A DNA stretch of 64,000 bases from Moorena sp. SIOASIH (GCF_010671925.1 NZ_JAAHIH010000001.1:933053-997052), one strand, 5' to 3'. Positions 10,277 through 52,740 are shown, numbered from the stretch's first letter. Notes: generated by a model not told the origin, from the sequence alone. Numbers and translations are program-made.

Positions 10277-10627
<351 letters not shown>

Positions 10628-28811: not shown

Positions 28812-31340
28812 GTGGCACAGGAATTCCATATCTCCGTAACCCCCTTAGGAAAACATGATGATTATCTGGTGCGCATCGAACGAGTGGCACCGGGAGTCTC
28901 ATTGGCAGAAGAACAAGTCAGTTGGCCGGTAGAAGAATGGTTAACCCAGGCCAAGCAACTGATGAATGACCCCCTATTTAGTGTCCTGCAGGGTAGGGCA
29001 GCTGGGGTGGATGGCAGTTTTGCCATGCCATCTTGGGGAGAACCGTACTCTCAATCCTCTTTAAACTTAGTTGCCTTGGGTCAGGAGCTATACAATGCCC
29101 TATTTAAAGGAAGCTTGCGCGATAGCTGGATGATGGCGCAAGCGATCGCTCAAAATCAACGGTCGGTTTTGCGGCTGCGTCTGGGATTGAAAGGCACAGA
29201 ATTACCCCGCCTACCTTGGGAAGTGCTTCATGCTGGGGATCGCCCCCTAGCCACAGGAACTGATGTGGCTTTCTCCCGCTACCAAATGACTAAAGGCTTG
29301 ATTAGACCAGTTCCTAAGCCTTTCTCCCAACCGAATCAACCTCTGAAAATTTTGATGGTGATCGCGGGTCCAAGTGATCAAGAAAGTTTAGAACTCTTAC
29401 AAGAAGCATCTCACCTGAAAGAAGAACTCCGCCATCGTTCACCCAATGGCCCCCCAGCGATTCATCTGACAATTCTGGAACAGCCAGGACGGGAACAGTT
29501 AACCCAAGCCCTGGAACAAGGAAAATATCAAGTCTTCCACTATGCTGGTCACTCTAACCTAGGGGAATCAGGTGGTGATGTTTACCTGGTTAGTAAAAAA
29601 ACTGGTTTGACAGAGACCGTAAGGGGTGATGATCTAGCGGGATTGTTAGTTAATAATGGTGTCCAGCTGGCTGTATTCAACTCCTGTCGTGGTGCTCATA
29701 CAGCTGCTTCAGATAGCCAGGAAAACGGTAACGATCAAAATCTCGCCCAAGCACTGGTTAAGCGTGGTATTCCTGGTGTTTTAGCCATGGCAGAGCGCAT
29801 CCCCGATGAGGTAGCCCTGACCCTAACCCGACTATTATACCGTAACATCAACCAGGGTTATCCCATTGACCTAAGCCTCTCGCGAGCTAGACAAGGACTC
29901 ATTTCTGCTTATGGCTCGAACCAGCTTTATTGGGCATTACCTGTTCTCTATCTGCATCCGGAATTCGATGGTTTCTTGACCAATGATGACCAGAGTTATG
30001 ACCGAAATCAAATATTTAGCCTGCCCGATCCTCCTGGAATGTCTGTAGGGTTAGACCCAGAAGAGGGTTTTTTTACACCACCAGCAGATAATGATTCTAC
30101 CACATTCTCAGAATTTGAGGAAGAGTCAGCTCTTGTCTCTAGGGGAGAAGCTGAGTATGACCATGAAAGTCTCACTGGTGTACCACAGGGTTTAGAATCT
30201 CATCCACTAGAAGCAGACGATCCCGCTGCTTTCATTAAGGGATTGCTGGATCAGCTGAATACAGAGGCTCAGGGTGGGGAATCAACAATAGCAGCATCGA
30301 ATTTAGAGGGGTTATCGGAAAACCCTTACTCAGACACTGCTCAGAAGAACTTACCAGTCCATACCCCAAGTCAACTCCCTGCTGCTAGGAAAGCAACAGC
30401 TGCCACCCTGACTGCGGCTTTGTCTACGGAGGGCTCAACCCAATCAGCGCCAAAGCTTGAGGATACCACAGCAGCAGTTGAGGCTAAAAAGGTAACTAAT
30501 CCTAAACAGAAGGGTTCAAGGTTACCACGTTCACCATTGTGGATCGGACTAGGAGCAACGGGAACTCTTGCCTTAGTACTTTTGGGCGTTTGGTTTTTCC
30601 AGAACCCTCCTACTTCTGGGCCAGGGAGACAATTACCACCAGGTCTCTCCAAACCTGTTGATTACTCAAATGTGAATTTGAAAAAAGCTAAAACCAACAC
30701 GGTCACAGCGATCGCAATTCAAGCATTCAGTAAGGGTAATATTATTCGAGGAACCGAAGCTGTAACGGCATTGCTAGACCGGGGTGCATTACCCGAGGCT
30801 TCTGCTGCCCTTCAGGAAGTTCCCTCAGAACAATTGAATCAGTCAATGGTGAGTTTTTTAAGAGGGCGTCTGGCATGGCAGTCGATCCAGACCGGCTCGG
30901 ATGAATACAGTCTGGATGATGTCAGACGTTATTGGCAAAGAGCAGTCAAACAAGAACCTGACTCTTGGACTTACCGTAATGCCCTAGGGTTTGCCTATTA
31001 CGCTGAAGGCAAATACGAAGGAGCTAACCAAGCTTGGTATGATGCATTGTACAGGAGTAGCAACAAGAAATCTACAACAGTTGGATCTGGAAAATCCAGC
31101 AATTCCCAAAAATTGAATACCTATGCTGGCTTAGCGCTAGGGTCGTGGAAATCGGCTCAAGAACAAAACGGAGCTAAGCGGGCGAGTTTGTCCCAACAAT
31201 CCCTCAAGCTACGGCAACATGTGCTCACCAATGACCCGATTAACTTCCAACCTGATGCCTTGAGCAAGAACTGGCTTTGGTCACAGCAAGCGATTAAAGA
31301 TTGGCAATCGCTTTTAGAGGTTAGAACTTCTAACAATTGA
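28812..31340 (+). CDS. Membrane-anchored CHAT-domain (caspase-like) peptidase with a C-terminal TPR-like region
   Basis: CHAT core with His in FHYAGHSNLG and Cys in AVFNSCRGAH. One TM helix (LWIGLGATGTLALVLLGVWFF). C-terminal helical repeats. GTG start. Confidence 0.8.
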   Translation: MAQEFHISVTPLGKHDDYLVRIERVAPGVSLAEEQVSWPVEEWLTQAKQLMNDPLFSVLQGRAAGVDGSFAMPSWGEPYSQSSLNLVALGQELYNALFKGSLRDSWMMAQAIAQNQRSVLRLRLGLKGTELPRLPWEVLHAGDRPLATGTDVAFSRYQMTKGLIRPVPKPFSQPNQPLKILMVIAGPSDQESLELLQEASHLKEELRHRSPNGPPAIHLTILEQPGREQLTQALEQGKYQVFHYAGHSNLGESGGDVYLVSKKTGLTETVRGDDLAGLLVNNGVQLAVFNSCRGAHTAASDSQENGNDQNLAQALVKRGIPGVLAMAERIPDEVALTLTRLLYRNINQGYPIDLSLSRARQGLISAYGSNQLYWALPVLYLHPEFDGFLTNDDQSYDRNQIFSLPDPPGMSVGLDPEEGFFTPPADNDSTTFSEFEEESALVSRGEAEYDHESLTGVPQGLESHPLEADDPAAFIKGLLDQLNTEAQGGESTIAASNLEGLSENPYSDTAQKNLPVHTPSQLPAARKATAATLTAALSTEGSTQSAPKLEDTTAAVEAKKVTNPKQKGSRLPRSPLWIGLGATGTLALVLLGVWFFQNPPTSGPGRQLPPGLSKPVDYSNVNLKKAKTNTVTAIAIQAFSKGNIIRGTEAVTALLDRGALPEASAALQEVPSEQLNQSMVSFLRGRLAWQSIQTGSDEYSLDDVRRYWQRAVKQEPDSWTYRNALGFAYYAEGKYEGANQAWYDALYRSSNKKSTTVGSGKSSNSQKLNTYAGLALGSWKSAQEQNGAKRASLSQQSLKLRQHVLTNDPINFQPDALSKNWLWSQQAIKDWQSLLEVRTSNN

Positions 31341-37231: not shown

Positions 37232-37365
37232 AAATTAGCAATTTTGGGACAAAAATAGGTTCATACCTTGGGTGAATTCCCAAGTAAACCCTAATTGCTT
37301 AAAGTTAAGGTGTTTAAAGCTTACGGTCACCACTAGTTTTTGCTAGGAACCTTGAGGAGAATACT

Positions 37366-37845
37366 ATGGCAACGATTGTACCTGTCAATATTGGTATCAA
37401 TGAACAAGACCGCAAAGAGATTGCTGAGGGACTGTCTCGTCTGCTAGCGGACACTTATACCCTATACCTGAAGACTCATGCCTTCCACTGGAATGTTACC
37501 GGACCAATGTTCAACTCCCTACACCTGATGTTTGAGCAACAGTACAATGAGTTGGCTTTAGCAGTGGATGCGGTAGCAGAGCGGATTCGTACCCTAGGCT
37601 ATCCTGCTCCTGGTAGCTACAGTCAGTATGCGGAATTATCCTCCATTCCAGAAACCAGCGATGTTCCGGAGGCTGAGGAAATGGTGCGCTTGCTAGTGGA
37701 AGGCAATGAGGCAGTGGTAAGAACTGCACGGTCTGTTTTCCCAGCCGCTGAACGTGCTAACGATGAGTCCACAGCTGACCTGTTGACCCAACGGATGAGC
37801 ATACACGAGAAAACGGCTTGGATGCTGCGCAGTATTTTAAAATAG
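37366..37845 (+). CDS. dps: Dps-family ferritin-like DNA-binding protein
   Basis: 159 aa. Ferroxidase-centre residues in the [25 protein letters not shown] block. Confidence 0.88.
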
Positions 37846-37974
37846 AAGTATTAAGTATGAAGGATAAAGGATGAAGTATTAGGTATTAATGATGAAGGAT
37901 GAAATAGTTCAACTTATCGGTTGTTCAACAACTGGTATATTTTGATCTATATGTATTCATCCCTCAAGATGTCA

Positions 37975-38008
37975 CTTTCATCCTTTATCTTTCATACTTC
38001 AGCCTTTA
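37975..38008. repeat. 34-bp dispersed repeat, copy 1 (TTTCATCCTTTATCTTTCATACTTCAGCCTTTAG)
   Basis: Near-identical copy at 43555-43589, in direct orientation. Degenerate inverted copy at 37862-37900. Confidence 0.85.
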
Positions 38009-38307
38009 GGTGAAGCCTTCAATAGTTATAAATTTTATTCCCAATAAATATAGCGCTATATTTAGCGGTTCTACACAATATCTCACTTTGCAACTGTTAA
38101 AGCAACTTATCCCTAAAAATTACCTTTCCCTAGCTGAATTATAAAAATGGTATTTGAGTAAAATAAAAAAATTTTGCTCGTTTGTAGAACTTCAGGATTT
38201 TTTCGATACAAGTAGCTAAGCGGGTTGTGGTACGGAACTTCATATATGAGTTTTAGCTGACAACCGCTGTCCAGAGAGCAAAACAGCTGATTTAAGGACA
38301 TTCCTCT

Positions 38308-39066
38308 ATGAATGAAAAGAAAAAGCCAGCATCCTCTGAGGAAAATAAGGATATCACTGAATCTACAACCGATGATAACATAAATGCTCAAGGTCTGAAA
38401 GCTCAGAACCTACCTTCTAGGAGCTTTGAGCAGAATCGTGCTCTGAGAAAGCTGATTTCAGACATTTCCCAACCTGGTTGGCTTAAAGTGTCTCCAAAAA
38501 ACCATGAATTACCCTTACCAAGGGAGATTTACCAAGAGGTTACTGAAGTAACCACACAAGAAATTAGTCTGAGACTTACTAGGAAGATTCAGAATAGGGA
38601 AATTGACCCCAACAAAGGAAGTGTAACACGTTATGTGAGATCTCTCAAAACTCACATAGTTAACCAGACTACAAACGATCACCTCGGCAACTATTCCTTT
38701 GTCAAGCAGGGAACAAAGAAATGGGTCAAAACAGTTTCTATCTATACACCAATTACCAATTCTGAGTCTGGTAACACTGACGAGTCTTGTGTGTTGTTAG
38801 ATATCCTCCCTTCTGAAACAGCTCCTCTGCTTTCCGAACAGATTGTGGATTGTATCAGGGAAGATCCAGAAGGACTTTTCATGTGCAGCCATATGCGGAA
38901 GCTTCCCAAAGCAAATTTTCGAGCAATTGCACTACTGAGGGTTGATGGTTATGAGTGGCAAGAAATTGCATACTACTTAGGTACTAAACTGAAAGCAACT
39001 GCTAAATTTCACGACCGTTGCCTTCGAGAATTTGCACCCAAAATCAGGGAGTACTTGCAGTCATGA
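38308..39066 (+). CDS. Hypothetical protein with a C-terminal sigma-70 region-4-like helix-turn-helix
   Basis: The C-terminal FRAIALLRVDGYEWQEIAYYLGTKLKATAKFHDRCLREF resembles sigma r4_2. No region 2 recognised. Confidence 0.4.
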   Translation: MNEKKKPASSEENKDITESTTDDNINAQGLKAQNLPSRSFEQNRALRKLISDISQPGWLKVSPKNHELPLPREIYQEVTEVTTQEISLRLTRKIQNREIDPNKGSVTRYVRSLKTHIVNQTTNDHLGNYSFVKQGTKKWVKTVSIYTPITNSESGNTDESCVLLDILPSETAPLLSEQIVDCIREDPEGLFMCSHMRKLPKANFRAIALLRVDGYEWQEIAYYLGTKLKATAKFHDRCLREFAPKIREYLQS

Positions 39067-39240
39067 CTAAATCAAAGGGGCAAATCAGCCCAACCTGACA
39101 GTAGAGGAATGGAATGACTTTGATAGTTCCCCTGGCAGATTGCATGGTGGTTCTAACGGGGGATTATTAATCCTTGAAAGCACATACTACCTGGTCTTGT
39201 CAGTGACTGATAAATGTGACTCAGACCCAGTAATTAAATT

Positions 39241-42200
39241 ATGGATGAACAATCTAGTAAAGCTTATTTAAAATTAATCAATGCTTTACTTACCTGCTCT
39301 AGTGGTAAAGAATCAGAAATTTTGAGAGCTAATCAAGAGTTGATAGATAAAAAATTGATACTCACAATGGTAATAGTGTCCGAAACACTTGCAGAACAGG
39401 GTGATCGTACAGCGGCTGATTGGTTGCAAAACCTAGCAGAGCAATTAGCTGAAGCGCTGGGAGGATTAGAGCAGTTTAAAAGTCAGACAAATAAAAAAAG
39501 TAACTCAGCAGCATTGTCTATTTCTGAAGTCTATGTTGAGTTTTTGATGGAGGTATTACAGGCGACTGCGGAGAGCCAGGGTAATCATCAGGTGGTCTAT
39601 CCATTACTACAAGCAAATCTGGACAAACTAGATGATAACTTAACTCAAATTTTGAGAGTCTGGTTTGAGGGAATACTATCGGAAAACCAGCCAGACCAGG
39701 CACAAAATATCGCCGTTATAGTTAGTGATTTCAGTAACTTGATTAAACAGTTTCCGCTAGGGAGTAGAGCAATCAATCTGGAGATTGCAATCACTGGATT
39801 TGAAATTGGATTAACGACCTTCACCCGCGAAGCCTTTCCAGAGGAGTGGGGCATAATCCAAAATAATCTGGGCAATGGATATAAAGACCGGATTTTGGGA
39901 AATAGAGCTGAGAATCTGGAGCAAGCCATTGCTTGCTATCAAAATGCTTTACGAGTATACACCTGTAATGAATTTCCACAGCTATGGGCTGCTACTCAAA
40001 ACAATTTAGCAAATGCCTATAGTGATCGCATTTACAAAGAAAGGACTGACAATTTGGAACAAGCCATTGGTTGCTATCAAAATGCTTTGCGGGTTTATAC
40101 TCGCGAGGCATTTCCTCAACAGTGGTCTACAATCAACAATAACTTAGGTGCGGTCTACAGCAAACGCATTCGCGGTGATCAAGCTGATAACCTGGAAATA
40201 GCACTCCAAGCCTACCATCGTGCTTTGGAAGTCCGCACTAGAGAGGCTTTTCCGATGGATTGGGCTGCGACTAAAAGTAATCTGGCAACTGCCTATAGCG
40301 ATCGCATTCGTGGAAACAGAGCTGACAATCTTGAACTTGCCATTGCCTGCTATCAAAATGCTCTAGAGGTTTATACTCGTTTAGCATTTCCCCAGGCTTG
40401 GGCAATGACCCAAAACAACCTAGCAGTTGCTTACCGGGAGCGTATTCGAGGTGACAAAGCAACAAACCTGGAAATGTCGATTCAGGCTTACTATAGTGCT
40501 TTGGAAGTCCGCACTAGAGAGGCTTTTCCAATTGATTGGGCTGCTACTCAAAGTAATCTGGCCATTGCCTATAGCGATCGCATTCGTGGAAACAGAGCTG
40601 ACAATCTTGAACTTGCTATTGCCTGCAGCCAAAGTGCCTTACAGGTTTACACCCGCGAGGCATTCCCAGAACAATGGGCTAGGACTCAGAGTAATTTAGC
40701 TACTGCTTATCGCGAGTTGGGACAGATTGCCAAGGCACTTACTTGCTATAAAAATGCTTTAGAGGTTTTTTTCCCTACAGCTTTTCCAGTAGACTGCCTT
40801 AGGGTTGGACGGAATTTAGGCGATACAGCTTTTGCTGCTGGCTTCTGGACAGAAGCCATTGAAGGGTATGATATTGCTATTGAAGCGGTCGAGCAAAGCC
40901 GTACCTGGGCTAGTACTGAGGCAAGGCGTGAAGAGATTCTCTCAGCAGCGATAGATGTTTACGGCAACATGGTGCAAGCCTGCATCAATAGCGAACAGTT
41001 TGACCGGGCTCTTGAATACGTCGAGCGCAGCAAAGCTCGTAACCTTGTGGAAATACTGGTCACTAAAAACCTTTACCCCAAAGGCAACATTCCCAAAACT
41101 GTCCTCAAAGAGCTAGATCGCCTGCGCCGGGAAATTGTCGGGGAACAGCGTAGGCTTAAGATCGAAGAAAGCATTAGATCTACAGATGGTAGTTTTGATC
41201 CCTCTATTGATATAAAGCAAAACCGCATTAAATTAGAGCAACTGATCAGACAACTAGATCAGTTAATCAAGCACGATATTCACCCCATCGATCCTGCCTT
41301 TAACTTTACTCAAAAAGTTGAACCAATCTCCTTTAAACAGATTCAGCAATTGCTGCCCGATCAGCAAACTGCTCTGATTGAGTGGTATGTCACAAGCGAG
41401 ACATTTTTAACTTTCATTATCACATCCAGCAGCCATATGCCCATGGTCTGGCAAGCCTCCCCAGAAGACCTACAAACCTTGTTAGATTGGACTAGTAGCT
41501 ATCTCAGTTCCTACTATGATAATAGGCAAAAATGGCGACATGAATTAGATGATCGTTTACGGCAACTTGCTGATCTTCTAAACCTCAACCATTTACTCTC
41601 TCTCATTCCCATAGACTGCGAGAGACTGATTTTAATCCCCCATCGCTTTCTCCATATGTTTCCCCTCCACGCCCTAGAGATAGCAGGTCAAAATGCAAAA
41701 GTCAACAGTCAGAATAGCGCTACTGAATTACTTAATAATTTGACTCTCGGAGAATCTCTGGCAATATCTACTCAGCTTAGGGAAGAAAATACCAAAAGAG
41801 AATTGCCTCTGGCAAAAGATGACATTGTTGAGCAAAAACGTCAAAATTGCCTGTTAGACCTCTACCCTGGTGGAGTAAGTTATGCTCCCAGCTGCAAGCT
41901 ATTGCAAACTGTAGAGGCAACACATACCTCACCTCAACAGCATAATTTTGATCGTCTGTTCACTGTCCAAAATCCCACTGATGACCTAGACTTCACTGAC
42001 CTTGAAGTAACCGCTATTAGTTCCTACTTTGACCATGCTTATATCTTGGCTAAACAAGCTGCTACTAAAGCTGCTACTAAAGAGGCATTGAATCAGGAAA
42101 ATGCTCTACAGAATGCTAACTGTGTTCACTTCTCTTGCCATGGTTACTTCAACTTAGCTTCACCTCTAGAATCAGGGCTTAGATTAGCAAATGATGAACA

Positions 42201-42642
42201 CTTAACTTTGGGGGAAATATTTGAATTTAACTTACCAAAATGCCGCTTGGTTACTCTCTCAGCTTGTGAGACAGGATTGACAGACATTACTAGTCTCAGT
42301 GACGAGTACACAAGTTTACCCAGTGGCTTTCTCTATGCAGGAAGTTCCAATGTCGTTAGCAGTCTCTGGGCAGTGAATGACCTTCCCACAACATTTCTGA
42401 TGATCAAGTTTTATGAAAATCTCAAACATAAAACATCAGCCAATATAGCACTCAGCCAAGCTCAACTTTGGCTCCGAGATACCACTCTCTACGAACTGGA
42501 GGAGTGGATTGAGCAGAGGCAGTTACCTTTTGATCACAAGTTAAGGAAACTTTGGTCGCAATGGTTTAATCAAGTTCAAGGTAGTGACAAACCTTTTGCA
42601 CACCCATTCTACTGGGCTGCTTTTACATGTCAAGGATTGTAA
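39241..42642 (+). CDS. TPR-repeat / CHAT-domain protein (1133 aa)
   Basis: About 10 tandem units of about 42 aa (REAFPxxWAxTQNNLAxAYxDRIRGxRAxNLExAIxxYQNALxVYT) encoded by near-identical DNA repeats. C-terminal CHAT with His in VHFSCHGYF and Cys in LSACETG. Confidence 0.85.
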   Translation: MDEQSSKAYLKLINALLTCSSGKESEILRANQELIDKKLILTMVIVSETLAEQGDRTAADWLQNLAEQLAEALGGLEQFKSQTNKKSNSAALSISEVYVEFLMEVLQATAESQGNHQVVYPLLQANLDKLDDNLTQILRVWFEGILSENQPDQAQNIAVIVSDFSNLIKQFPLGSRAINLEIAITGFEIGLTTFTREAFPEEWGIIQNNLGNGYKDRILGNRAENLEQAIACYQNALRVYTCNEFPQLWAATQNNLANAYSDRIYKERTDNLEQAIGCYQNALRVYTREAFPQQWSTINNNLGAVYSKRIRGDQADNLEIALQAYHRALEVRTREAFPMDWAATKSNLATAYSDRIRGNRADNLELAIACYQNALEVYTRLAFPQAWAMTQNNLAVAYRERIRGDKATNLEMSIQAYYSALEVRTREAFPIDWAATQSNLAIAYSDRIRGNRADNLELAIACSQSALQVYTREAFPEQWARTQSNLATAYRELGQIAKALTCYKNALEVFFPTAFPVDCLRVGRNLGDTAFAAGFWTEAIEGYDIAIEAVEQSRTWASTEARREEILSAAIDVYGNMVQACINSEQFDRALEYVERSKARNLVEILVTKNLYPKGNIPKTVLKELDRLRREIVGEQRRLKIEESIRSTDGSFDPSIDIKQNRIKLEQLIRQLDQLIKHDIHPIDPAFNFTQKVEPISFKQIQQLLPDQQTALIEWYVTSETFLTFIITSSSHMPMVWQASPEDLQTLLDWTSSYLSSYYDNRQKWRHELDDRLRQLADLLNLNHLLSLIPIDCERLILIPHRFLHMFPLHALEIAGQNAKVNSQNSATELLNNLTLGESLAISTQLREENTKRELPLAKDDIVEQKRQNCLLDLYPGGVSYAPSCKLLQTVEATHTSPQQHNFDRLFTVQNPTDDLDFTDLEVTAISSYFDHAYILAKQAATKAATKEALNQENALQNANCVHFSCHGYFNLASPLESGLRLANDEHLTLGEIFEFNLPKCRLVTLSACETGLTDITSLSDEYTSLPSGFLYAGSSNVVSSLWAVNDLPTTFLMIKFYENLKHKTSANIALSQAQLWLRDTTLYELEEWIEQRQLPFDHKLRKLWSQWFNQVQGSDKPFAHPFYWAAFTCQGL

Positions 42643-42793
42643 TTATTTTATCTATCACTTGTAGAATATCGGGATTATTTGCCTATACGTCATTGTAGGA
42701 ATATAGAGCAATTTTAATGATTAAAAAATATTGTTATAATAAAAATATAACAAATAATAATTATGAAAACTATAAAAAATAATAATAATAAAA

Positions 42794-43306
42794 ATGAATA
42801 TAACTTTAAATAGACCCAATTTGCAAATATTTATTAGTAGTATTAGTATTTTGAGTTCACTAATTACAGTATTCTATTTAGTGAACGATTTTCTTCTACC
42901 GAAGCCAGAAATAAATCCCGTTTCCCAAGAGTGGGTTGCTACTAAAATTATAAATACCGATACCAATTTTTATGAAAATTATAAAAAGGCAGGAACCTAT
43001 GAAGTTTGGACTGACAGACAAGCAAATACTCACCATTTCTCCTTGATCAATATAGATGAAGGTGCAAAGAAAAATTCCTCGGATTTTCAGGGAGTATTAA
43101 AAGAATTGGAAAAATCTGGTCAACCTGTCTGCCTTGGGCTTACAGGTAAGAGAAGCTGGAGCAAATCTGAGCGAAAGAATATCGTTGAAATCAGAGTATT
43201 TCCTGAGCAATCTAAGTACGATCAATTAGGACAAGCTAAGGGTGATACACTGTGTGAGCAAAAACCAGGAGAGGTAATAATTGAAGCAAGAAGCGACACG
43301 CAATGA
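42794..43306 (+). CDS. Hypothetical N-terminally membrane-anchored protein (170 aa) in very AT-rich DNA
   Basis: One N-terminal TM helix. ORF only. Confidence 0.35.
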   Translation: MNITLNRPNLQIFISSISILSSLITVFYLVNDFLLPKPEINPVSQEWVATKIINTDTNFYENYKKAGTYEVWTDRQANTHHFSLINIDEGAKKNSSDFQGVLKELEKSGQPVCLGLTGKRSWSKSERKNIVEIRVFPEQSKYDQLGQAKGDTLCEQKPGEVIIEARSDTQ

Positions 43307-43554
43307 TATAGCGCTACGCGCAAGGCAAGAGGCAAGAGGCAAGAGGCAAAAGTTCACTAAAAGAGCGTTTCAGCTTGTATCAATGTCCTAACCTTAATAC
43401 GTAGTGCTATATAAGATGCGTTGGGTGCATCTCAATGCATGCTGTTTGACCCGGTGGGTGGAACGGGCATCTTGCCCGTTACAATCGGGCAGCAACCTAA
43501 CCCGGGCGTTGAGGCGGAAAATGAGGGTGAGCGCCCCTAAGGCACCCTACTGGA

Positions 43555-43589
43555 CTTTCTTCCTTTATCTTTCATACTTCAGCCTTTAG
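43555..43589. repeat. 34-bp dispersed repeat, copy 2
   Basis: TTTCTTCCTTTATCTTTCATACTTCAGCCTTTAG; matches copy 1 at 32 of 34 positions. Confidence 0.85.
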
Positions 43590-43605
43590 CTAAACTTGTC
43601 ATAAC

Positions 43606-45018
43606 TTAGGAATTGGACTGAAAAAAAACTTGAGCGCTAAAGTGTTCCTGATCAAAGGAATTAACTGCCTTGGGTAATCGAAGAGTAAACCTACTACCAA
43701 CACCTCGTTCGCTGTATACTTGTAAGCTACCGTGGTGTGCTTGAGCGATCGCATTAGCAATTGCCAGTCCTAATCCGGAACCTCCTGTGTGACGAGAGCG
43801 ATCGCAATTTACCCGATAAAAGCGATCAAAAATTCGCCCTTGGTCTTCTTGGGCAATACCAATCCCCGTATCTTCTACCTGGATCACCGCGTGTTGGTCG
43901 CTCTTGTCTAAAATAACAGTTACTTTACCACCCACAGGGGTGTATTGGATACCATTAATAATTAAATTAGAAACTAGGCGATAAAGCTGCTCAGAATCAC
44001 CCACAACTTCCAGAGGAGTTTGCACTCGCACCGAAGATGTCAGTGTAATTTCGGAAGCGATTGCCAAGGCTGCTAATTCCTCAACTAAATCGCTAACCAG
44101 GTCATTGAGACAGCATGTCTGGTGAGCCACAGAAGGTTGTCTATCTAAGCGAGACAACAACAACAAATCGGCAACTAACTGACTCAGCCGCTGATTTTGA
44201 CGTTCAACAATTTCCAGAATGTTTCGTGCTTCTTGTTGATCCAAGCTAGGCATCAAAAGCCCCGATTCAACAGTTGCCAGTGTAGCCGCTATCGGTGTCC
44301 GTAGCTCGTGGGCAGCATCGGCGGTAAACTGTTGAATCTGTCTGTAGGATTGGTAAATAGGTTCCATTGCCAACCCTGCTAACCACCAACTGCCACTGCC
44401 GACTAAGATCATGGCCATTGGCAGCCCTAATGCCAAGATTAATTTTACCGTATTGAGGTAGTCGTTGAGGTCTTGTAGAGAGTGCCCCACCTGCAAATAC
44501 CCCCAATCCCGCTGATCTTGAGTATGTAGCGATAGAGAAATTTGGTGATAGGAGTTGCCCTTACCATCGGAAATGGTTTGCCAAGGTGCTTGATTAAACA
44601 CGTGGGGTAATCCCTCTGGGTAACTTCCTGCAACGGCAATTAAACGTCCTGAGGTATCAAATAGGCGGATGTAGTAGTGACCTTGGCTAAGAGCACTGAG
44701 GATGTGGCGTTGGGAACTCACCAGTGGTTTAGAACAGTTCACTCCAACGATACACAGATTCGGTAAAAGTTCCCCAATTATCGGCTCTACCTGTCCCGGT
44801 TCCTTGAGCTTCCATTCGAGACTATCATGGAGTGTCCCCGCAACGGATTTTAACTCCCGGTCTGAAGTGACTAAATGGGTATGAACGATCGCTCTGTAAA
44901 CACCAAATCCCAACAGGCTCAAAATAAACCCCATGACGATGGCATAGGAAAGTGCTAATTTCCCACGAGTCTGGTTAAATAGCTTATTTCGATTCATTAT
45001 TTTTTCAAATTGAGACAA
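43606..45018 (-). CDS. Two-component sensor histidine kinase (periplasmic sensor domain, two TM helices)
   Basis: H-box AAHELRTPIAA. N, G1 and G2 boxes (GGSGLGLAIA). Confidence 0.85.
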   Translation of the reverse strand: MSQFEKIMNRNKLFNQTRGKLALSYAIVMGFILSLLGFGVYRAIVHTHLVTSDRELKSVAGTLHDSLEWKLKEPGQVEPIIGELLPNLCIVGVNCSKPLVSSQRHILSALSQGHYYIRLFDTSGRLIAVAGSYPEGLPHVFNQAPWQTISDGKGNSYHQISLSLHTQDQRDWGYLQVGHSLQDLNDYLNTVKLILALGLPMAMILVGSGSWWLAGLAMEPIYQSYRQIQQFTADAAHELRTPIAATLATVESGLLMPSLDQQEARNILEIVERQNQRLSQLVADLLLLSRLDRQPSVAHQTCCLNDLVSDLVEELAALAIASEITLTSSVRVQTPLEVVGDSEQLYRLVSNLIINGIQYTPVGGKVTVILDKSDQHAVIQVEDTGIGIAQEDQGRIFDRFYRVNCDRSRHTGGSGLGLAIANAIAQAHHGSLQVYSERGVGSRFTLRLPKAVNSFDQEHFSAQVFFQSNS

Positions 45019-45692
45019 TACCCCAAACCATGCACAGTTTCAATGGGAATGCTGGAGTTGATTGATTCGAGTTTCCGACGTAGCAAGCGCATTTGAGCCG
45101 CCACTACGTTACTAATCGGTTCTGCACTAACTTCCCAAAGCTGATTGCGAATTTGGTTGGTGGTCATCACCTGATTGGGATGCTTCATGAAATACTCTAA
45201 GAGCTGGAATTCTTTATTTGTTAGTGGAATCTCGAGTTTCTCACTGTTAGCAGCAAGACGATAAACCGTTCGGTTACCATAGTCTAAAATAAGCTCACCC
45301 ACCTGAAGTTGTTGGGGCTGGAGTACCGGTGTTCGCCGGTGCAAGGCTCTAACTCTTGCTAGCAACTCTGCCATTCGGAAGGGTTTGACTAAATAGTCAT
45401 CGGCTCCCGTATCCAAACCCATCACTCTATCTTCCAAGCGGTCTTTTGCCGTTAGCATCAAAATAGGTAAGGGATTATTACGATAGCGTAACTGACGCAG
45501 TAACTCTAGTCCCGATAGCCCTGGCAGCAACCAGTCGAAGATAGCTAGGGTATATTGGGTTTCGTGGTTGTTTAAATAACCCCAAGCGTCAGTGCCGTTA
45601 ACAACCAAGTCCACCACGTACTTCTCTATATTCAACGCTCGCTTAATTGCAGCACCCAAATCTGGCTCATCTTCAACTAGCAGTACTCTCAT
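44997..45692 (-). CDS. OmpR-family response regulator
   Basis: Receiver domain MRVLLVEDEPDL...D...K and a winged-helix C-terminus. Overlaps the kinase gene by 22 bp. Confidence 0.9.
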   Translation of the reverse strand: MRVLLVEDEPDLGAAIKRALNIEKYVVDLVVNGTDAWGYLNNHETQYTLAIFDWLLPGLSGLELLRQLRYRNNPLPILMLTAKDRLEDRVMGLDTGADDYLVKPFRMAELLARVRALHRRTPVLQPQQLQVGELILDYGNRTVYRLAANSEKLEIPLTNKEFQLLEYFMKHPNQVMTTNQIRNQLWEVSAEPISNVVAAQMRLLRRKLESINSSIPIETVHGLGYCLNLKK

Positions 45693-46176
45693 CTGTCTTT
45701 TCCCGCTGGATACTTTGTCTATAGTAGCGATATGCGGGAAAGAAAGCGGGGCAGGGTGTAACTTTACAGAGGATAAATTGGCTTAAAGCTGCACAAACCT
45801 ATAGCCAATTTATCTAATAGCAAAGATAACTTCGGAGCAGGGATTAGCGAGTAGCAATTATATAATATGGCCTCAAAAATTATAACAATTTATACATAAA
45901 TTATAAAGCATAAATTCTAAAAAATAGAATGAAATTGTGACAGTAATTAACAAATTTTAACAAATCAATTTCCTACTCTCAGAAGCTGAAGGCTTACCAA
46001 AGTCCTAACAAAAATAATTTCATTGATACCTAACATTTCATCCTGATTTCATATTTGCTTGTGATACTGAATCAATACGACAGCAAATGACCATCCAGCC
46101 ACGTTAGGTGTCTGGGTGGAGGCTATGGTGACTACTTGCACCCTCTGCTGAGCATAAAAAGCACTGATCCAAAATT

Positions 46177-47838
46177 ATGCATAAGACAGAAACAATCCTG
46201 GCTTCAACGTTTACTTTTTTGCTGCTGATAGCGATCGCACCAGTTGCTGTTTTCGCCCATGCCGGGCATGGTAATGAGTTCCAAAGCGGAACCGAAGCCA
46301 CCAGCAATCCGGAAGGAATTGAGGTAGATGCCACCACCGCTAGTCAAATTGGGATTAAACTCCAATCCGTCTCTAGGCAGTTTTTGGATATTGGTATTAA
46401 AACCACTGGGCAAATTGAAACCCAGCCCAACCAACAGGCGCAAGTAACAGCGCCGATTCCCGGTACAGTTGCTAAACTTTTGGTCAAACCAGGTCAGAGG
46501 GTCAAAAAAGGTCAAGCGGTTGCTGTCATCTCTAGCTTGGAGTTAATTGAATTGCGGGTTGAGTCTCTCGACAGACTGACTGAAGCTAAGGCAACATTGG
46601 GAGAAGCTGAGGCAAATCTGGAACTAGCTCGGGAAAATTTAGAACGTCAGCGTCAAATTGCTGCTGCTGAAATCGATGAAGCTGAAACTCAGCTAGCAGT
46701 AGCCCAAGAAGAGTACGATAAAGACCTAGCATTAGCAATCGAAGGTGCTCTGGCTCGACGTCAGATGCTAGAGTCGAAAACTAAACTAGCAGAGGCTAAA
46801 ACGTTACTGAAAAGAGCATTTAGCCGTCGGGAAGTTCTGGAAGCAGAAGCGGAACTAAAACGGGCTCAAACAGCGGTTAAGGCTGCCAAATCTCGGGTTC
46901 AACTGAGCGATACTACCTACAAAACCCGACTGCAACAACTTAGTAATTCTGCTAATAACCAAGGAAGGGTAACGGTGCTTGCTCCAATTTCCGGTACAGT
47001 AGCGCAATGGCAAGTAACCTTGGGTGAATCCTTTGAAGACGCAGGTGGGCAACTGATGACGATTGTTAACAATAATCAAGTCTGGGCAACTGCTAATATT
47101 TATGAAAAAGACTTATACAAGGTAAAAATAGGTCAGAAGGTCAGATTAGAAGTTTCTAGTCTGCCTAATCAGACTTTTACAGGTCAAGTTACCCAAATCG
47201 ACCCGATAGTAGCAGGTCAGACACGAGTAGTGCCAGTGAGGGTAAGGTTGGATAATCCTGGAGGGCAACTAAAACCAGGAATGTTTGCTCAATTAAAGAT
47301 TTTCACTGATAAAACCAATGTAGCTACTTTAGCGATTCCTCAAGATGCTTTGGTGGATGCTAATGGTAAACAACTGATTTATGTAGAAAATGGTAAGAAC
47401 TTCTATGAACCTGTAGAACTTGCTCTTGGTTCAACTTTTGGGGATTTGGTGGAAGTCAAGAATGGTTTATTTGAAGGTGACCAGATTGTGGCTCAAGGGG
47501 GGGTGATGTTGTATGCCCAATCCTTAAGGGGTGGCTCTAAAGCTGATCACCATGAACATGAGCAAGAAGAACATAATCATGAGGCAACATCCACTAACCT
47601 TAATGTTGCTAGCCTACCCTGGTGGTGGGTTTTGCCTGTAGGAGGGGTAATTACAGCTGGTGCTTTTATGCTTGGACAGCGCACTGCTTCACAATCAAGA
47701 CCAGCACCTATAGAAATTTCAGATGAACCGACCAATAATAACTATCATTCCACTGCTGATGTAAAAGGAAATGGTCAGAGCAATGGGGATGGCTATTTAG
47801 ATTCCGCGATTCCTAATCGTTTCGCAAACAAGCAATAA
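46177..47838 (+). CDS. RND efflux membrane-fusion protein (CzcB/CusB family) with a His-rich C-terminal tail
   Basis: Lipoyl/beta-barrel MFP architecture with a long coiled-coil hairpin. HHEHEQEEHNHE tail. Confidence 0.8.
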   Translation: MHKTETILASTFTFLLLIAIAPVAVFAHAGHGNEFQSGTEATSNPEGIEVDATTASQIGIKLQSVSRQFLDIGIKTTGQIETQPNQQAQVTAPIPGTVAKLLVKPGQRVKKGQAVAVISSLELIELRVESLDRLTEAKATLGEAEANLELARENLERQRQIAAAEIDEAETQLAVAQEEYDKDLALAIEGALARRQMLESKTKLAEAKTLLKRAFSRREVLEAEAELKRAQTAVKAAKSRVQLSDTTYKTRLQQLSNSANNQGRVTVLAPISGTVAQWQVTLGESFEDAGGQLMTIVNNNQVWATANIYEKDLYKVKIGQKVRLEVSSLPNQTFTGQVTQIDPIVAGQTRVVPVRVRLDNPGGQLKPGMFAQLKIFTDKTNVATLAIPQDALVDANGKQLIYVENGKNFYEPVELALGSTFGDLVEVKNGLFEGDQIVAQGGVMLYAQSLRGGSKADHHEHEQEEHNHEATSTNLNVASLPWWWVLPVGGVITAGAFMLGQRTASQSRPAPIEISDEPTNNNYHSTADVKGNGQSNGDGYLDSAIPNRFANKQ

Positions 47839-47864
47839 TCAGCAAGGCTGTAGGTAAGACCAAA

Positions 47865-50800
47865 ATGCTTAACTCGATCCTGAAGTGGTCTATTGCTCGA
47901 CGTTGGCTAGTTGTAATTGGCGCTATCATCGTCACAGTTTGGGGATTTCGCATTGTTTCCCAAATGCCCTTAGATGTATTTCCCAACTTTGCTCCTCCCC
48001 AAGTTGAAATTCAAACGGAAGCACCGGGATTGGCTCCAGAAGAAGTGGAATCTTTAGTCACAATGCCTGTCGAAAGTGCGATCAATGGCATTCCTGGATT
48101 GACTACAGTACGCTCTTCTTCGGGAGTGGGCATTTCGGTAGTAAAAGTTATTTTTAAATGGGATACTAATATTTATCAAGCTCGCCAGTTAGTAACTGAA
48201 CGGTTACAACAAGCTGCTGCCAGATTACCGGAAGGAGTAGAATCACCGCAAATTTCTCCCCTTTCCTCGCCCATTGGTACCATTCTTTCCTACGCTTTTA
48301 CCATTGACGAAGATGTAGAGACGGGAGATGTCCCCTCTAAAATTGACCTAATGGCTGTGCGTCGATTGGTTGACCGAGATATTACCAACCAATTATTGGC
48401 AGTAGCGGGGGTAACTCAGGTAATTGCCTATGGGGGAGATGTGCGTCAGTATCAGGTACTGGTTGACCCTGCCAAGTTAACCGCTTTTGATGTTTCCTTA
48501 GCAGAAGTTACCCAAGCAGCAGCAGCAGCAAATACTAATGCAGCGGGTGGCTTTCTGATTAGTCCAGACAAGGAACTATTAATTCGAGGCATTGGACGAG
48601 TTGAGTCAATCGAGGATTTAGAACAATCGGTGGTAGTGGCACGTAATGGCACACCAGTGCTGCTTTCTGATCTCGCTGATGTCCGCATTGGTGCTGCCTT
48701 GAAGCGGGGTGATGGTAGCTTGGATGGGAAAAAAGCGATTGTGGTGCTAGTTAACAAACAGCCCCTCGCTGATACTCCTACTGTTACTAAAGCCGTAGAA
48801 GCAGCAATGGAGGAAATTAAAGCGGGTTTGCCTAATAATGTCAAGGTTACTGTTACCTTCCGCCAATCCGATTTTATTGATGCCTCAATTAAAAATGTCA
48901 GGAATGCTTTGCGCGATGGCATCATTATTGTTTCTATTATTTTGTTTCTGTTCTTGATGAACTGGCGCAGTGCCATTATTACCCTAAGCGCCATTCCTCT
49001 GTCTTTGTTGATTGGGATGATGCTACTCAATCTCTTTGGTTTGGGAATTAATACCATGACTTTGGGAGGACTAGCTGTAGCAATTGGGTCAGTGGTAGAT
49101 GACTCAATTGTAGACATGGAAAATTGCTACCGGGGATTACGAAAAAATCAGCAAGCAGGAAATCCTATCAACCCTTTACAGGTGGTTTATAACACCTCAG
49201 TGGAAGTGCGAGTTAGTGTGCTGTTTTCTACAGTAATTATTGCTGTAGTCTTCGCACCAATTTTTACCCTTACTGGTGTTGAAGGTCGTATCTTTGCACC
49301 GATGGGAGTAGCCTATCTAGTGTCAATTTTCGCCTCTACATTTGTAGCCTTGACTCTGAGTCCAGCTTTGTGTGCTTTCTTGCTTGCTACTGTACAGTTA
49401 CCGGAAGAAGAAACTTGGGTAGCACGGTTTTCTAAAAAACTATATCAGCCATTAATTCGATTTTCTCTTCATGCTCCCAGTCTAGTTTTGCTAACAGCAG
49501 TAGCCGGGTTTGTGGCTTCTCTAATTATTTTTACCTCTCTAGGACGAGTCTTCTTACCAGAGTTTCAGGAGCGATCGCTTGTGAATGCTTTCACTCTCTA
49601 TCCCGGTGTCTCTCTGGAAATGACGAATCGGGTTGGTTCAGCCATGCAACTAGCTCTCAAAGATGACCCCCGGTTTGAGTCAGTGCAGTTACGTTCAGGG
49701 CGTGCTCCCGGTGATGCTGATGCTGGTAGTGTTACTCTGGGCCATTTGGATGTGGAAATTTCAGAGGAGGGGATGAAAGACCGAAAAGCAACGATTGAGA
49801 AACTCCGTGAGGAATTTGCTAAGTTACCGGGGGTAGCTCCCAGTATTGGTGGTTTTATTTCCCACCGCATGGATGAAGTCCTCTCAGGAGTCAGGAGTGC
49901 GATCGCAGTAAAAATTTTTGGTCCGGAACTTTCGGAATTACGAACTATTGGTGCTCAAGTTCGAGATGCCATGCAAGATATTCCTGGTGTGGTTGATCTA
50001 ATTCTTGAACCCCAAATTCCGATCAAACAGGTGCAAATTACGTTTGACCGGGCTGCTGCTGCCCGTTATGGTCTTAGTGTTGGTCAGCTTTCAGAAATTG
50101 TTGAAACTGCTCTCAATGGTAGAGTTGTCTCGCAAGTACTCGAAGAGCAACAGTTATTTGATTTAGTAGTGTGGTTGAAAGCCGAATACCGCAATAATCT
50201 TAATACCATTAGCAACCTGCTAGTTGACACTCCCACGGGCACTAAAATTCCTCTTGCCCAAGTTGCTCAGATTAGTTATGGTAAGGGACCCAACACAATC
50301 AACCGCGAAAATGTTTCTCGCCTGATTGTGGTTTCAGCTAATGTTGCTGATCGAGATTTAGGTAGTGTAGTTGAAGAGATTCAAGCCACAGTCAAGGATA
50401 AAGTACAATTACCTTCCGGCTACTTTATCCAATATGGAGGACAGTTTGAATCAGAACAACGAGCATCTCAAAATTTACTAGTATTCGGTACTCTGGCACT
50501 GATTGTGATTGCTATTTTAATGTACTTTGCTGTCAAGTCAATTTCAGCAACAGTAATGATTATGCTCAATCTGCCTCTAGCATTAACTGGCGGAATTTTT
50601 TCCGTTGCCCTCGGTGGTGGTATTCTCTCTGTTGCTTCCATGGTAGGGTTTATCACTCTCTTTGGTGTTGCTACCCGCAATGGTTTACTTCTGGTAGATA
50701 ATTACAATAATAAATTTGCTCAGGGAATGCCTTTAAAGCAAGTAATTATTGAAGGTTCAACGGAACGATTAGTGGCAATTTTAATGACAGCGTTGACTTC

Positions 50801-51035
50801 AGCGTTAGGAATGGTTCCTCTCGTAATTGGCACGGGGGCAGGGAAAGAAATTTTACAGCCATTAGCAATAGTTGTTTTGGGAGGGTTGTTTACGTCTACA
50901 GCTTTAACCTTATTGGTATTACCAGCTCTGTATGCTCAGTTTGGTCGCTTTTTCATATCTAAACCCATAAATTCTGGGATTTCACCTGAAGAATTAAATT
51001 CATCTTTTAAACGGGGTTCAGTGGTGGGTAAATAG
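47865..51035 (+). CDS. Heavy-metal efflux RND transporter (CzcA/CusA family)
   Basis: 1056 aa, 12-TM RND topology. N-terminal MLNSILKWSIARRWLVV...FPNFAPPQVEIQTEAPG is typical of the HME subgroup. Confidence 0.9.
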   Translation: MLNSILKWSIARRWLVVIGAIIVTVWGFRIVSQMPLDVFPNFAPPQVEIQTEAPGLAPEEVESLVTMPVESAINGIPGLTTVRSSSGVGISVVKVIFKWDTNIYQARQLVTERLQQAAARLPEGVESPQISPLSSPIGTILSYAFTIDEDVETGDVPSKIDLMAVRRLVDRDITNQLLAVAGVTQVIAYGGDVRQYQVLVDPAKLTAFDVSLAEVTQAAAAANTNAAGGFLISPDKELLIRGIGRVESIEDLEQSVVVARNGTPVLLSDLADVRIGAALKRGDGSLDGKKAIVVLVNKQPLADTPTVTKAVEAAMEEIKAGLPNNVKVTVTFRQSDFIDASIKNVRNALRDGIIIVSIILFLFLMNWRSAIITLSAIPLSLLIGMMLLNLFGLGINTMTLGGLAVAIGSVVDDSIVDMENCYRGLRKNQQAGNPINPLQVVYNTSVEVRVSVLFSTVIIAVVFAPIFTLTGVEGRIFAPMGVAYLVSIFASTFVALTLSPALCAFLLATVQLPEEETWVARFSKKLYQPLIRFSLHAPSLVLLTAVAGFVASLIIFTSLGRVFLPEFQERSLVNAFTLYPGVSLEMTNRVGSAMQLALKDDPRFESVQLRSGRAPGDADAGSVTLGHLDVEISEEGMKDRKATIEKLREEFAKLPGVAPSIGGFISHRMDEVLSGVRSAIAVKIFGPELSELRTIGAQVRDAMQDIPGVVDLILEPQIPIKQVQITFDRAAAARYGLSVGQLSEIVETALNGRVVSQVLEEQQLFDLVVWLKAEYRNNLNTISNLLVDTPTGTKIPLAQVAQISYGKGPNTINRENVSRLIVVSANVADRDLGSVVEEIQATVKDKVQLPSGYFIQYGGQFESEQRASQNLLVFGTLALIVIAILMYFAVKSISATVMIMLNLPLALTGGIFSVALGGGILSVASMVGFITLFGVATRNGLLLVDNYNNKFAQGMPLKQVIIEGSTERLVAILMTALTSALGMVPLVIGTGAGKEILQPLAIVVLGGLFTSTALTLLVLPALYAQFGRFFISKPINSGISPEELNSSFKRGSVVGK

Positions 51036-51236
51036 GTAAGCTATCAGCCATCAGCTATCAGCGGTCAGCTTAGTCAGTGTCAACTGTTTTACTGGTTATC
51101 TAGCAATTCTCTTTCCCATCAGGTACAAAGGGATCCCCCTAAATCCCCCTTAAAAAGGGGGACTTTGAGGTTTATAAGTGTACCTCATAGATGCAATAAA
51201 CGCTATAAACTAAATTAGTTTGAAAGGAGTAAAAGT

Positions 51237-51710: not shown

Positions 51711-51741
51711 ATCTTGAATAAATATTGTGGGTAAATAGATC

Positions 51742-52614: not shown

Positions 52615-52639
52615 GTAAATATCTCATTTGGTAAGCACT

Positions 52640-52740
52640 CAGCAGTTGGCCGTAAGCATTCAGCAGTTGGCAGTCAGCATTCAGCAGTCAGCAGTCAGCA
52701 GTCAGCCGTTGGCTGATAGCTGATAGCTGATCGGACTTAC
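52640..52740. repeat. STRR heptamers (CAGCAGT/AGCTGAT)
   Basis: Direct reading. Confidence 0.9.

Follow-up and report, generated by a model that had tools for sequence, protein, structure and literature searches.

We analyzed a 64,000-nucleotide (nt) stretch of DNA from Moorena sp. SIOASIH (hereafter the window) and focused on a three-gene block in the 37,975–43,589 region. The block is preceded by dps (37366–37845, + strand), which encodes a 159-amino-acid (aa) ferritin-like protein (Pfam Ferritin, E = 1.1e-27) and forms the left chromosomal flank, with 93–98% nucleotide identity across Moorena loci. On the right it is followed by a convergent gene for a 470-aa sensor histidine kinase (43606–45018, − strand; Pfam HisKA and HATPase_c), which is 94–96% identical in loci L001–L004 and is the first gene of a segment encoding the kinase, a response regulator, CzcB and CzcA. 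The three open reading frames (ORFs) of the block lie on the same strand and encode a putative, divergent extracytoplasmic function (ECF)-like sigma factor of 252 aa (38308–39066, + strand), a TPR-CHAT protease of 1133 aa (39241–42642, + strand) and a 170-aa protein with one N-terminal transmembrane helix (42794–43306, + strand). The sigma-like protein was 100% identical to the protein recorded for Moorea/Moorena sp. SIOASIH.

The window was compared with the loci of Moorena sp. SIO3I8 (L001), M. bouillonii PNG (L002), M. producens 3L (L003), the Moorena metagenome-assembled genome (MAG) SS36440 (L004), Moorena sp. SIO3B2 (L005) and Moorena sp. SIO3H5 (L011), with an ENA assembly carrying a filled site (L009) and with an ENA contig of plasmid-type context (L006). 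More distant loci included a cyanobacterial metagenome contig (L012), Microcoleus sp. MOSTC5 (L028), Microcystis (L030) and Moorena sp. SIO3I6 (L031). Protein homologues were sought in a collection of 5.8 billion clusters (~15 billion sequences).

Two copies of a 36-nt direct repeat, at 37974–38009 and 43554–43589 (+ strand), border the block. They are identical at 35 of 36 positions and spaced 5,580 bp apart, a better match than the 34-bp pair (32 of 34 positions) given in a preliminary description of this DNA. The 29-nt core of the repeat occurs exactly twice in the 64 kb, where shuffles predict 0 occurrences. The left copy begins 128 nt past the dps stop, and 16 nt separate the end of the right copy from the kinase stop codon (43606–43608), so the repeats do follow the two genes as had been described; the left copy, however, is not free-standing. 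It forms the 3′ arm of an imperfect long hairpin built of GAAGGAT/ATCCTTC-type heptamers, which starts directly after the dps stop (37846–38006; inverted repeats I2 and I4). The predicted RNA fold of this ~150-nt hairpin was −58.9 kcal/mol (z = −7.8), and none of 200 shuffles was as stable. An Rfam scan of 37300–45100 gave no match. The hairpin is complete in M. producens 3L, SIO3B2, L009 and SIO3H5; SIO3I8 and M. bouillonii PNG keep only its central part and 3′ side (positions 47–119 of a 128-nt query). In the latter two genomes (~11548–11680), a different insert with CCCCCC...GGGGGG inverted repeats replaces the 5′ arm, and represents another small element at the same spot. In genomes free of the block, the hairpin probably terminates transcription in both directions, from dps and from the convergent kinase gene.

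A comparison of dps–kinase junctions in relatives, the synteny check suggested in the preliminary description, speaks for an accessory block. In SIO3I8, M. bouillonii PNG and M. producens 3L, the site consists of dps, the hairpin, one repeat copy and the kinase stop, with no block, and both copies of the window align to that single copy. The same position is filled in SIO3B2, L009 and SIO3H5, and both repeat copies are present in L009. Proteins homologous to the sigma-like protein were held by SIOASIH, SIO3H5, SIO3B2, Caldora/Symploca sp. SIO3E6 and unnamed assemblies, and none from M. producens or M. bouillonii was found in the 5.8-billion-cluster collection. The dps gene of SIO3B2 is itself split by a group II intron (4861–7031) at the equivalent of window position 37587/37588, and a group II intron reverse transcriptase/maturase is encoded at 17149–18684 of the window.

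A further copy was found in a wholly different context. L006 shares window positions 38171–43309, from the promoter region to just past the third gene, at ~90% nucleotide identity, and the 36-mer is absent from the readable part of this contig. The neighbouring gene encodes a 1200-aa DUF3854 protein that is 40–45% identical to CyRepA1-family plasmid replication proteins on 181 cyanobacterial plasmids; this homology was seen at the protein level, and a megablast search of the L006 flank against plasmids gave no match. A protein from a Caldora MAG falls in the same 90% cluster as the L006 sigma-like protein, and distant members of the sigma-like family are also encoded on Nostocales plasmids. 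The plasmid-type copy and the Caldora relative thus indicate that the genes moved horizontally at least once. The block is thus an accessory, mobile cassette: its site is empty in three Moorena genomes and filled in three, and a plasmid-type contig carries a further copy. The earlier view of an acquired rather than a housekeeping locus is partly supported by the three empty sites and by the copy on the CyRepA1-type contig; it is also clear that not all relatives carry the block.

The borders of the cassette were located from the same alignments. Past the left repeat, a 21-nt stretch (38010–38030, + strand) matches the empty allele of SIO3I8 and M. bouillonii PNG at 18 of 21 positions, and homology to the empty sites ends at ~38030. 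It is followed by a left border segment (38031–38170, + strand) that is common to the chromosomal copies only, being 85–99% identical in SIO3B2, L009 and SIO3H5 and absent from L006; this segment contains the palindrome AAATATAGCGCTATATTT at 38045–38064. ATATAGCGCTA (43306–43316, + strand) closes the conserved cassette on the right, where homology to L006 and SIO3H5 stops at 43309/43310. This 11-mer has only two sites in the window, the other being in the left border segment (38048–38061 region). A role for ATATAGCGCTA as a second pair of border repeats was considered and weakened, since its core TAGCGCTA is an over-represented genome palindrome, and we treat the pair as a mere lead. The octamer TAGCGCTA occurs at eight window sites (708, 19846, 26866, 31132, 38051, 41715, 43309 and 60907) where 0.67 are expected; two of these sites extend to ATATAGCGCTA, one lying at the inner left border and the other where homology to the plasmid-type copy stops.

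Between the cassette and the right repeat lies a filler (43310–43553) that consists of an (AGGCAAG)x4 array (43323–43349) and a small dispersed repeat (~43423–43527) and is common only to L009 and L010, with its 105-nt part recurring elsewhere in M. producens 3L. The latter part, a ~105-nt GC-rich element at 43423–43527 with the internal hairpin GGGCATCTTGCCC, is 78% identical to a sequence at an unrelated intergenic site in M. producens 3L (12576–12687), and is probably a small dispersed repeat resembling a miniature inverted-repeat transposable element (MITE). Similar GGGCATCCTGCCCGCCCG units are duplicated at 60927–61211.

The GC content of the block was 41.2%, compared with 44.2% for the window and 45.5% and 43.5% for the flanks. 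The sigma-like gene (41.2%) and the CHAT gene (42.9%) are within the range of the other genes of the window (36.9–52.1%), and a clear AT bias is confined to the 170-aa gene (35.5%) and the intergenic spacers. The most extreme part coincides with the spacer between the second and third genes (42643–42793, + strand), which holds a 25-nt tandem repeat and is ~80 nt longer than in the plasmid-type copy: at 42650–42800 the GC content is 17.9%, in agreement with the figure of close to 20% reported before. The description of a low-GC block therefore holds for the third gene and the spacers and overstates the case for the other two genes, and composition is a weak argument for acquisition. Because GC is only mildly low, synonymous divergence matches that of the flanks and no recombinase is encoded, the cassette does not appear to be a recent foreign import.

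The first gene had been described as encoding a lone sigma-70 region 4, possibly an anti-sigma-like partner. Searched alone against Pfam, the 252-aa protein gave 17 bits for Sigma70_r4_2 (cut-off 25.7) and no region 2 match. Among seven close homologues, however, all gave sub-threshold Sigma70_r4_2 matches and two also matched Sigma70_r2, and the relatives match TIGR02937 (sigma70-ECF) below its cut-off. An exhaustive profile search returned a family of 560 representative clusters, mostly of 205–250 aa, with end-to-end matches. A 60-sequence family profile matched both regions of the solved ECF sigma factors SigE, SigK, SigW and RpoE (E = 2.6e-5 to 0.04), and hhalign against E. coli RpoE gave 95% probability over 157 columns. 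The family profiles thus replace the region-4-only reading, and the protein is predicted to be an ECF-like sigma factor that is divergent yet complete, having both region 2 and region 4; its homology to ECF sigma factors is remote but consistent. Compared with the rest of the family, the proteins of the Moorena clade carry an extra ~30-aa N-terminus and a longer, apparently disordered linker (aa 129–175). No cognate anti-sigma factor was recognized in the cassette, whose sole small partner is the 170-aa protein.

Upstream of the sigma-like gene we identified the motif TTTGTAGAACTTCA (38181–38194, + strand), a proposed ECF-type −35-like promoter element. It is identical in the window and in the five other cassette loci that were readable here (SIO3B2, L006, L009, SIO3H5 and L012), and was found nowhere else in 31 loci, so that the upstream GAACTTCA motif is kept down to 50% protein identity (L012). 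A second box, GGAACTTCA (38234–38242, + strand), is kept in L012 and lost in L006. The degenerate form RGAACTTCA has only two sites in the 64 kb, both within 130 nt upstream of the sigma-like gene, where they appear as (A/G)GAACTTCA boxes. Since GGAAC-type −35 elements are typical of ECF promoters, these boxes may constitute an autoregulated promoter of the sigma-like gene. A family-wide promoter consensus is not claimed, as GAAC boxes upstream of distant members were inconsistent.

The second gene encodes, as stated in the preliminary description, a 1133-aa TPR-CHAT protein (Pfam CHAT, 2.3e-48; TPR_12, 1.2e-21). Its layout comprises a ~195-aa N-terminal domain, at least six 46-aa TPR-like repeats (nt 39860–40722), which appear at the DNA level as a 138-nt repeat family (D1), a helical middle part and a C-terminal CHAT domain (aa 773–1132; nt 41557–42636). 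The catalytic dyad is intact, with His967 (nt 42139–42141) in SCHG and Cys1009 (nt 42265–42267) in SACETG, and both motifs are kept in the 46%-identical orthologue of L012. The protease is probably cytoplasmic, as it contains no hydrophobic segment. Among alleles the CHAT protein measures 1129, 1133, 1139, 1181 or 1233 aa; increments of 48 and 100 aa approximate one and two 46-aa units, and variation in repeat number is therefore the likely cause. A second, unrelated CHAT protein of 842 aa is encoded at 28812–31340, downstream of an S8 subtilase gene with DUF5942 (25376–27145). It has an N-terminal CHAT domain, a C-terminal TPR and no sigma-like neighbour, and carries a hydrophobic stretch, LWIGLGATGTLALVLLGVWFF, that we read by eye as a transmembrane segment.

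The third protein is indeed membrane-anchored, with a hydropathy peak at residues 9–33 followed by a ~135-aa C-terminal domain; its standing as a conserved membrane partner was not borne out. No Pfam, NCBIfam or PADLOC match was obtained, only 4 clusters among the 5.8 billion contained it, all from Moorena genomes or unassigned metagenome assemblies, and the third ORF of L012 encodes an unrelated, soluble protein. This lineage restriction and the unrelated ORF of L012 indicate that the 170-aa protein is not a conserved partner. Its AlphaFold2 model was unusable (predicted local distance difference test score, pLDDT, 49). We also considered it as an anti-sigma factor and rejected this, as there is no room for an N-terminal cytoplasmic domain before the helix at residues 9–33.

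The linkage between the first two genes extends far beyond Moorena. In eight metagenome loci that had a full-length sigma-like gene, enough flank and neighbours tested with Pfam, a CHAT gene lay at most two genes downstream of the sigma-like gene (8/8). In seven of these (L013, L014, L017, L018, L020, L021 and L023), a gene of ~300–320 aa stands between the two, and CHASE2, STAND-NTPase or other modules are found at the C-terminus of the CHAT protein; the intervening gene was DUF1822 in both loci where it was tested. The same sigma-like/DUF1822/CHAT layout was found in L007/L008 and on a Tolypothrix plasmid. The eighth locus, L012, which is flanked by TnpB/IS605 genes, encodes full-length, collinear counterparts of the Moorena sigma-like protein (50% identical) and of the TPR-CHAT protease (46% identical). 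Because the third ORF of L012 is unrelated, the conserved core of the Moorena variant consists of two genes. Conservation of the gene triad across cyanobacteria, as proposed earlier, is thus seen for the sigma-like/CHAT pair and not for the membrane protein.

Kaur et al. (eLife 2021, PMC8195603) described a neighbourhood combining an ECF sigma factor, DUF1822 and an EACC2-caspase, and predicted that it forms a conflict system whose output is transcriptional. The cassette shares with that system the sigma family, homologues with 25–34% identity standing first in sigma-like/DUF1822/CHAT operons of L007, L013, L014, L017–L021, L023 and the Tolypothrix plasmid, and a caspase-fold CHAT protease as the constant partner. 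The predicted systems occur mainly in multicellular cyanobacteria, sometimes on plasmids or beside transposases. The cassette differs in three respects: it lacks DUF1822, with no such ORF in 39067–39240 or elsewhere in the block and no block protein matching the DUF1822 model; its protease has the reversed layout, the CHAT domain being C-terminal rather than N-terminal (EACC2-CHAT) with a variable C-terminal CHASE2, STAND or WD40 sensor; and it adds a lineage-specific membrane protein. The system of Kaur et al. is itself a computational prediction only, and no experimental study of ECF sigma/DUF1822/EACC2-caspase systems was found in the literature searched.

Stand-alone TPR-CHAT proteins of cyanobacteria have the same architecture as the cassette protease and often occur in conflict-island contexts. 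At least 4,999 clusters with this architecture, at 40–50% identity, were retrieved at E ≤ 1e-50. The three homologues whose neighbourhoods were examined (L028, L030 and L031) have no sigma-like neighbour, and only the Moorena/Caldora group and L012 showed a TPR-CHAT protein of this type paired with the sigma-like protein. Microcoleus sp. MOSTC5 (L028), which holds the closest full-length homologue outside Moorena, contains three tandem TPR-CHAT genes followed by a bDLD1 trypsin, an iSTAND and an AAA ATPase gene in a dense conflict-system island (1–13498). The neighbours in Microcystis (L030) are HigB/HTH toxin-antitoxin and RloB/AAA_21 genes, and in SIO3I6 (L031) the TPR-CHAT gene lies near a STAND-WD40 gene.

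The preliminary description had also pointed to the proteases of type III-E CRISPR. Csx30 reportedly binds and restrains RpoE in these systems. The TPR-CHAT protease Csx29 is reported to cleave Csx30, and RpoE is encoded in the loci and was studied together with Csx30 (e.g., PMC10028731, PMC9825189). The system is thereby a precedent for a protease steering a sigma-linked response through cleavage of a partner. The cassette resembles Craspase (Cas7-11/gRAMP, Csx29, Csx30, Csx31 and RpoE) in combining a TPR-CHAT protease, an ECF-type sigma factor and small proteins, but it lacks homologues of Cas7-11, Csx30 and Csx31 and a CRISPR array. Since there is neither Cas7-11 nor an array, any activation signal would not be RNA-guided, and the likeness is one of analogy only. 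Three other comparisons were drawn. For Borvo defence, the PADLOC match to BovA (E = 2.3e-9) covers only model positions 506–683 of 711, which correspond to the CHAT domain. With genomic islets inserted at the 3′ end of a gene between att-like repeats, the cassette shares the flanking direct repeats, the single copy at empty sites, the closeness to a stop codon (16 nt) and the existence of an extrachromosomal, plasmid-type counterpart; it differs from them in having no integrase or excisionase, a readable plasmid-type copy without the repeat and a composition hardly unlike that of the host. Unlike a transposon or MITE, it has no terminal inverted repeats, and the duplication of at least 36 nt is far above usual target duplications.

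We propose, with moderate confidence, that the block is an accessory cassette of marine filamentous cyanobacteria, namely Moorena and its relatives, lodged between the terminator-like hairpin of dps and the convergent kinase stop, which would encode a protease-plus-sigma signalling module. By its gene content and relatives it may be a rare variant of the predicted protease-plus-sigma conflict system, with a putative role in defence. Several observations weigh against this proposal. With respect to mobility, none of the three genes encodes a recombinase, integrase or transposase, the block has no other credible ORF and its ends show no terminal inverted repeats; the plasmid status of L006 is a putative one, judged by gene content. 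With respect to the sigma factor, the protein scores below every curated sigma cut-off, and the AlphaFold2 model built from 7 sequences was poor (pLDDT 57), with Foldseek retrieving only generic helical bundles from the Protein Data Bank (PDB), so that the assignment rests on the profile comparisons. In the Moorena clade, moreover, a Tyr replaces the region 2 Trp of the family profile and SigE, which means that binding to RNA polymerase is not assured, and no canonical −10 element could be assigned at canonical spacing from the GAAC box. With respect to defence, no known defence gene is adjacent, PADLOC returning only the weak CHAT-domain match to BovA, and the high ratio of nonsynonymous to synonymous divergence (dN/dS) of the block genes could reflect relaxed constraint rather than an arms race. 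Finally, phylogenies of the flanks were mosaic, with the block-bearing genomes forming no clade in any segment, a pattern compatible with gain as well as loss, and the SIO3I8/M. bouillonii PNG empty allele resembles the left repeat copy joined to the kinase, as would fit either an unoccupied target or a deletion scar.

A first alternative is that the cassette is ancestral to Moorena, that the empty sites are deletions between the 36-nt repeats without recent acquisition, and that the repeats are substrates of deletion rather than scars of integration. We regard this as quite possible while leaning against it. Between the window and L009, synonymous divergence (dS) was 0.04–0.08 for the block genes and 0.07–0.18 for the flanking genes; this similarity and the absence of a clade of block-bearing genomes are expected if the cassette is old. 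The empty allele of M. producens 3L, which consists of the repeat, the short kinase-proximal form and the kinase, is just what an L009-type allele would leave behind if its two copies recombined, and the 18 of 21 nt retained past the left copy in SIO3I8 and M. bouillonii PNG also suit deletion. An ancestral cassette still needs an original duplication or insertion to account for the repeat pair, however; two different empty alleles call for at least two independent deletions; and the plasmid-type context and the Caldora protein imply horizontal movement at least once. From the similar dS of block and flanks and the mosaic identities of the segments, we conclude that the cassette has resided in Moorena for about as long as the lineages have diverged, and that its patchiness reflects losses and/or recombinational exchange.

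The region is variable beyond the cassette. Positions ~43554–52734 of the window, which encode the kinase, response regulator, CzcB, CzcA, a 157-aa protein and a 290-aa YtkA-like protein, are absent from SIO3H5 (6763–7942), where a Zip transporter gene is found instead; the region downstream of dps is therefore a variable hotspot with multiple alleles. A gene for a 466-aa RRXRR-HNH endonuclease (53553–54953) is absent at the orthologous position in SIO3H5, and a related RRXRR-HNH gene is inserted between the arginase and ParB_N genes of SIO3B2 (2512–3783), so this gene looks like a mobile, homing-type endonuclease.

A second alternative concerns function: the module might be a physiological or developmental regulator, for instance a CHAT protease resembling HetF whose own sigma factor responds to metal or oxidative stress, and not an anti-invader or suicide system. 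The chromosomal neighbours, namely Dps, polyamine metabolism genes and the kinase/regulator/CzcBA metal-efflux segment, are in keeping with such a role, as are the absence of an adjacent known defence gene or significant PADLOC system match and the presence of a second, unlinked CHAT protein in the same window. We nevertheless consider it unlikely. Sister genomes can do without the cassette, and one copy of it lies in a plasmid-type context. Its genes have a dN/dS of 0.4–0.9, three- to five-fold above that of the flanks, with intact ORFs in all five copies; in the comparison of the window with L009, the values were 0.42–0.76 for block genes and 0.03–0.25 for flanking genes. Homologues of the protease adjoin genes for the death-like-domain trypsin, iSTAND, toxin-antitoxin and RloB/AAA_21 proteins. 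Kaur et al. (PMC8195603), moreover, count the caspase systems to which the sigma family is linked among the conflict systems.

A third alternative, that the 36-nt repeats are incidental arms of abundant heptamer-built intergenic terminators with no part in gain or loss of the block, seems doubtful. The window does contain dozens of tandem heptamer arrays (AGGGAAT, TGATAGC, TCAGCCG, TCCCTAC and others), often as inverted pairs and apparently mostly between large ORFs (e.g., 14763–14880, 56222–56285, 3557–3721 and 25267–25320), and the border repeat belongs to this general class of elements. The left copy doubles as an arm of the hairpin after dps, and weaker relatives exist: a 61%-similar copy at 52806–52866, near the far boundary of the kinase/CzcBA segment, and a match at 60782–60801 (20 nt at 90%), the recurrence noted earlier at about 60781, which is real but weak. 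Against this, the two copies, which consist of degenerate heptamers in non-periodic order, share 35 of 36 positions and occur at the two borders only. The rest of the window and ~150 kb of Moorena loci, a sample limited by being largely orthologous to the window, contained weak partial copies of the 36-mer and no exact one. The empty sites hold the one copy to which both window copies align. The left edge of the repeat is, furthermore, used by at least three junctions: dps hairpin–repeat, cassette plus filler–repeat, and priA–repeat–kinase. The last is found in MAG SS36440 (L004, 7511–7642), where priA, by its 3′ end, adjoins the repeat and the kinase in place of dps or the cassette, with the breakpoint exactly at the left edge of the repeat. 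Outside the 36-nt core, the two copies were not significantly similar, as 209 of 2000 shuffles reached the observed score, and a longer duplication reaching the 3′ end of the kinase gene was accordingly rejected as a firm claim.

Descent from a type III-E locus as a remnant or satellite, which the similar cast (TPR-CHAT, ECF-like sigma and small protein), a CHAT match to the Csx29 model NF041237 (E = 1.3e-19) and weak, sub-cut-off matches of the sigma-like relatives to the type III-E sigma model might suggest, is effectively refuted, because the Csx29 match reaches 70.6 bits against a cut-off of 300 with the CHAT domain alone aligning, the Moorena sigma-like protein gives no match to the type III-E sigma model, and the window has no ORF longer than 1133 aa, no Cas-like gene (the other large ORFs encode valyl-tRNA synthetase, CzcA and similar proteins) and no spaced CRISPR repeat array, the related loci examined likewise having no array.

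For the mobile protease-plus-sigma cassette that we favour, the most likely course of events is as follows. A plasmid-borne cassette would have recombined into the chromosome at the heptamer-repeat element, by host recombination or an enzyme supplied in trans, given that the cassette encodes no recombinase. Later it may have been lost when the flanking repeats recombined with each other, and/or exchanged among lineages through homologous recombination. The sigma-like gene is probably transcribed from its own GAACTT-type promoter, and the three genes may be co-transcribed, as they lie on the same strand and no intrinsic terminator was predicted on the + strand inside the block. The variable TPR array would be the likely sensor, and a bound signal would switch on the CHAT protease. 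The protease could then cleave the linker or N-terminal extension of the sigma factor, an inhibitor, or the membrane protein, thereby releasing or altering sigma activity and setting off a stress, suicide or anti-invader transcriptional response. The direction of regulation, the substrate, the signal and any role in defence are inferred in this scheme.

A bolder form of this idea, which we offer as speculation and think rather improbable as a whole, is that the cassette represents a CRISPR-independent counterpart of Craspase–RpoE: a self-contained, mobile TPR-CHAT switch that would sense a protein cue through its fast-evolving TPR array and proteolytically license a highly divergent sigma factor, by cutting the linker or extension of that factor or the membrane protein, leading to a suicide or immunity transcription programme in a multicellular cyanobacterium. 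If this is true, the gating of sigma factors by proteases would be an effector principle of general use, borrowed by type III-E CRISPR systems.

Two further features of the window were recorded. The valyl-tRNA synthetase gene (10940–14272) carries a CAAD domain insertion; CAAD is a membrane-anchoring domain known from cyanobacterial aminoacyl-tRNA synthetases. A 27-nt tandem repeat (2767–2958; 7 copies, 96% identity) lies within a 359-aa ORF on the − strand (2317–3396) and yields a 9-aa protein repeat.

Caspase-like CHAT proteases belong to the commonest proteins without an explained function in filamentous cyanobacteria, and defined roles are known only for HetF-type proteases and the CRISPR-linked Craspase. 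The ~560 clusters of ECF-like sigma proteins, linked to CHAT in every locus tested, have so far been noted only computationally. The Moorena cassette offers a compact version of this pairing: its core is a pair of conserved genes with a single candidate promoter motif, and natural strains either carry or lack it at a defined site, so that the role of protease–sigma pairs becomes testable. The heptamer-repeat hairpin downstream of dps is, in addition, a clean example of a structural-variation hotspot and bears on how the repeat-rich, natural-product-producing genomes of Moorena are remodelled.

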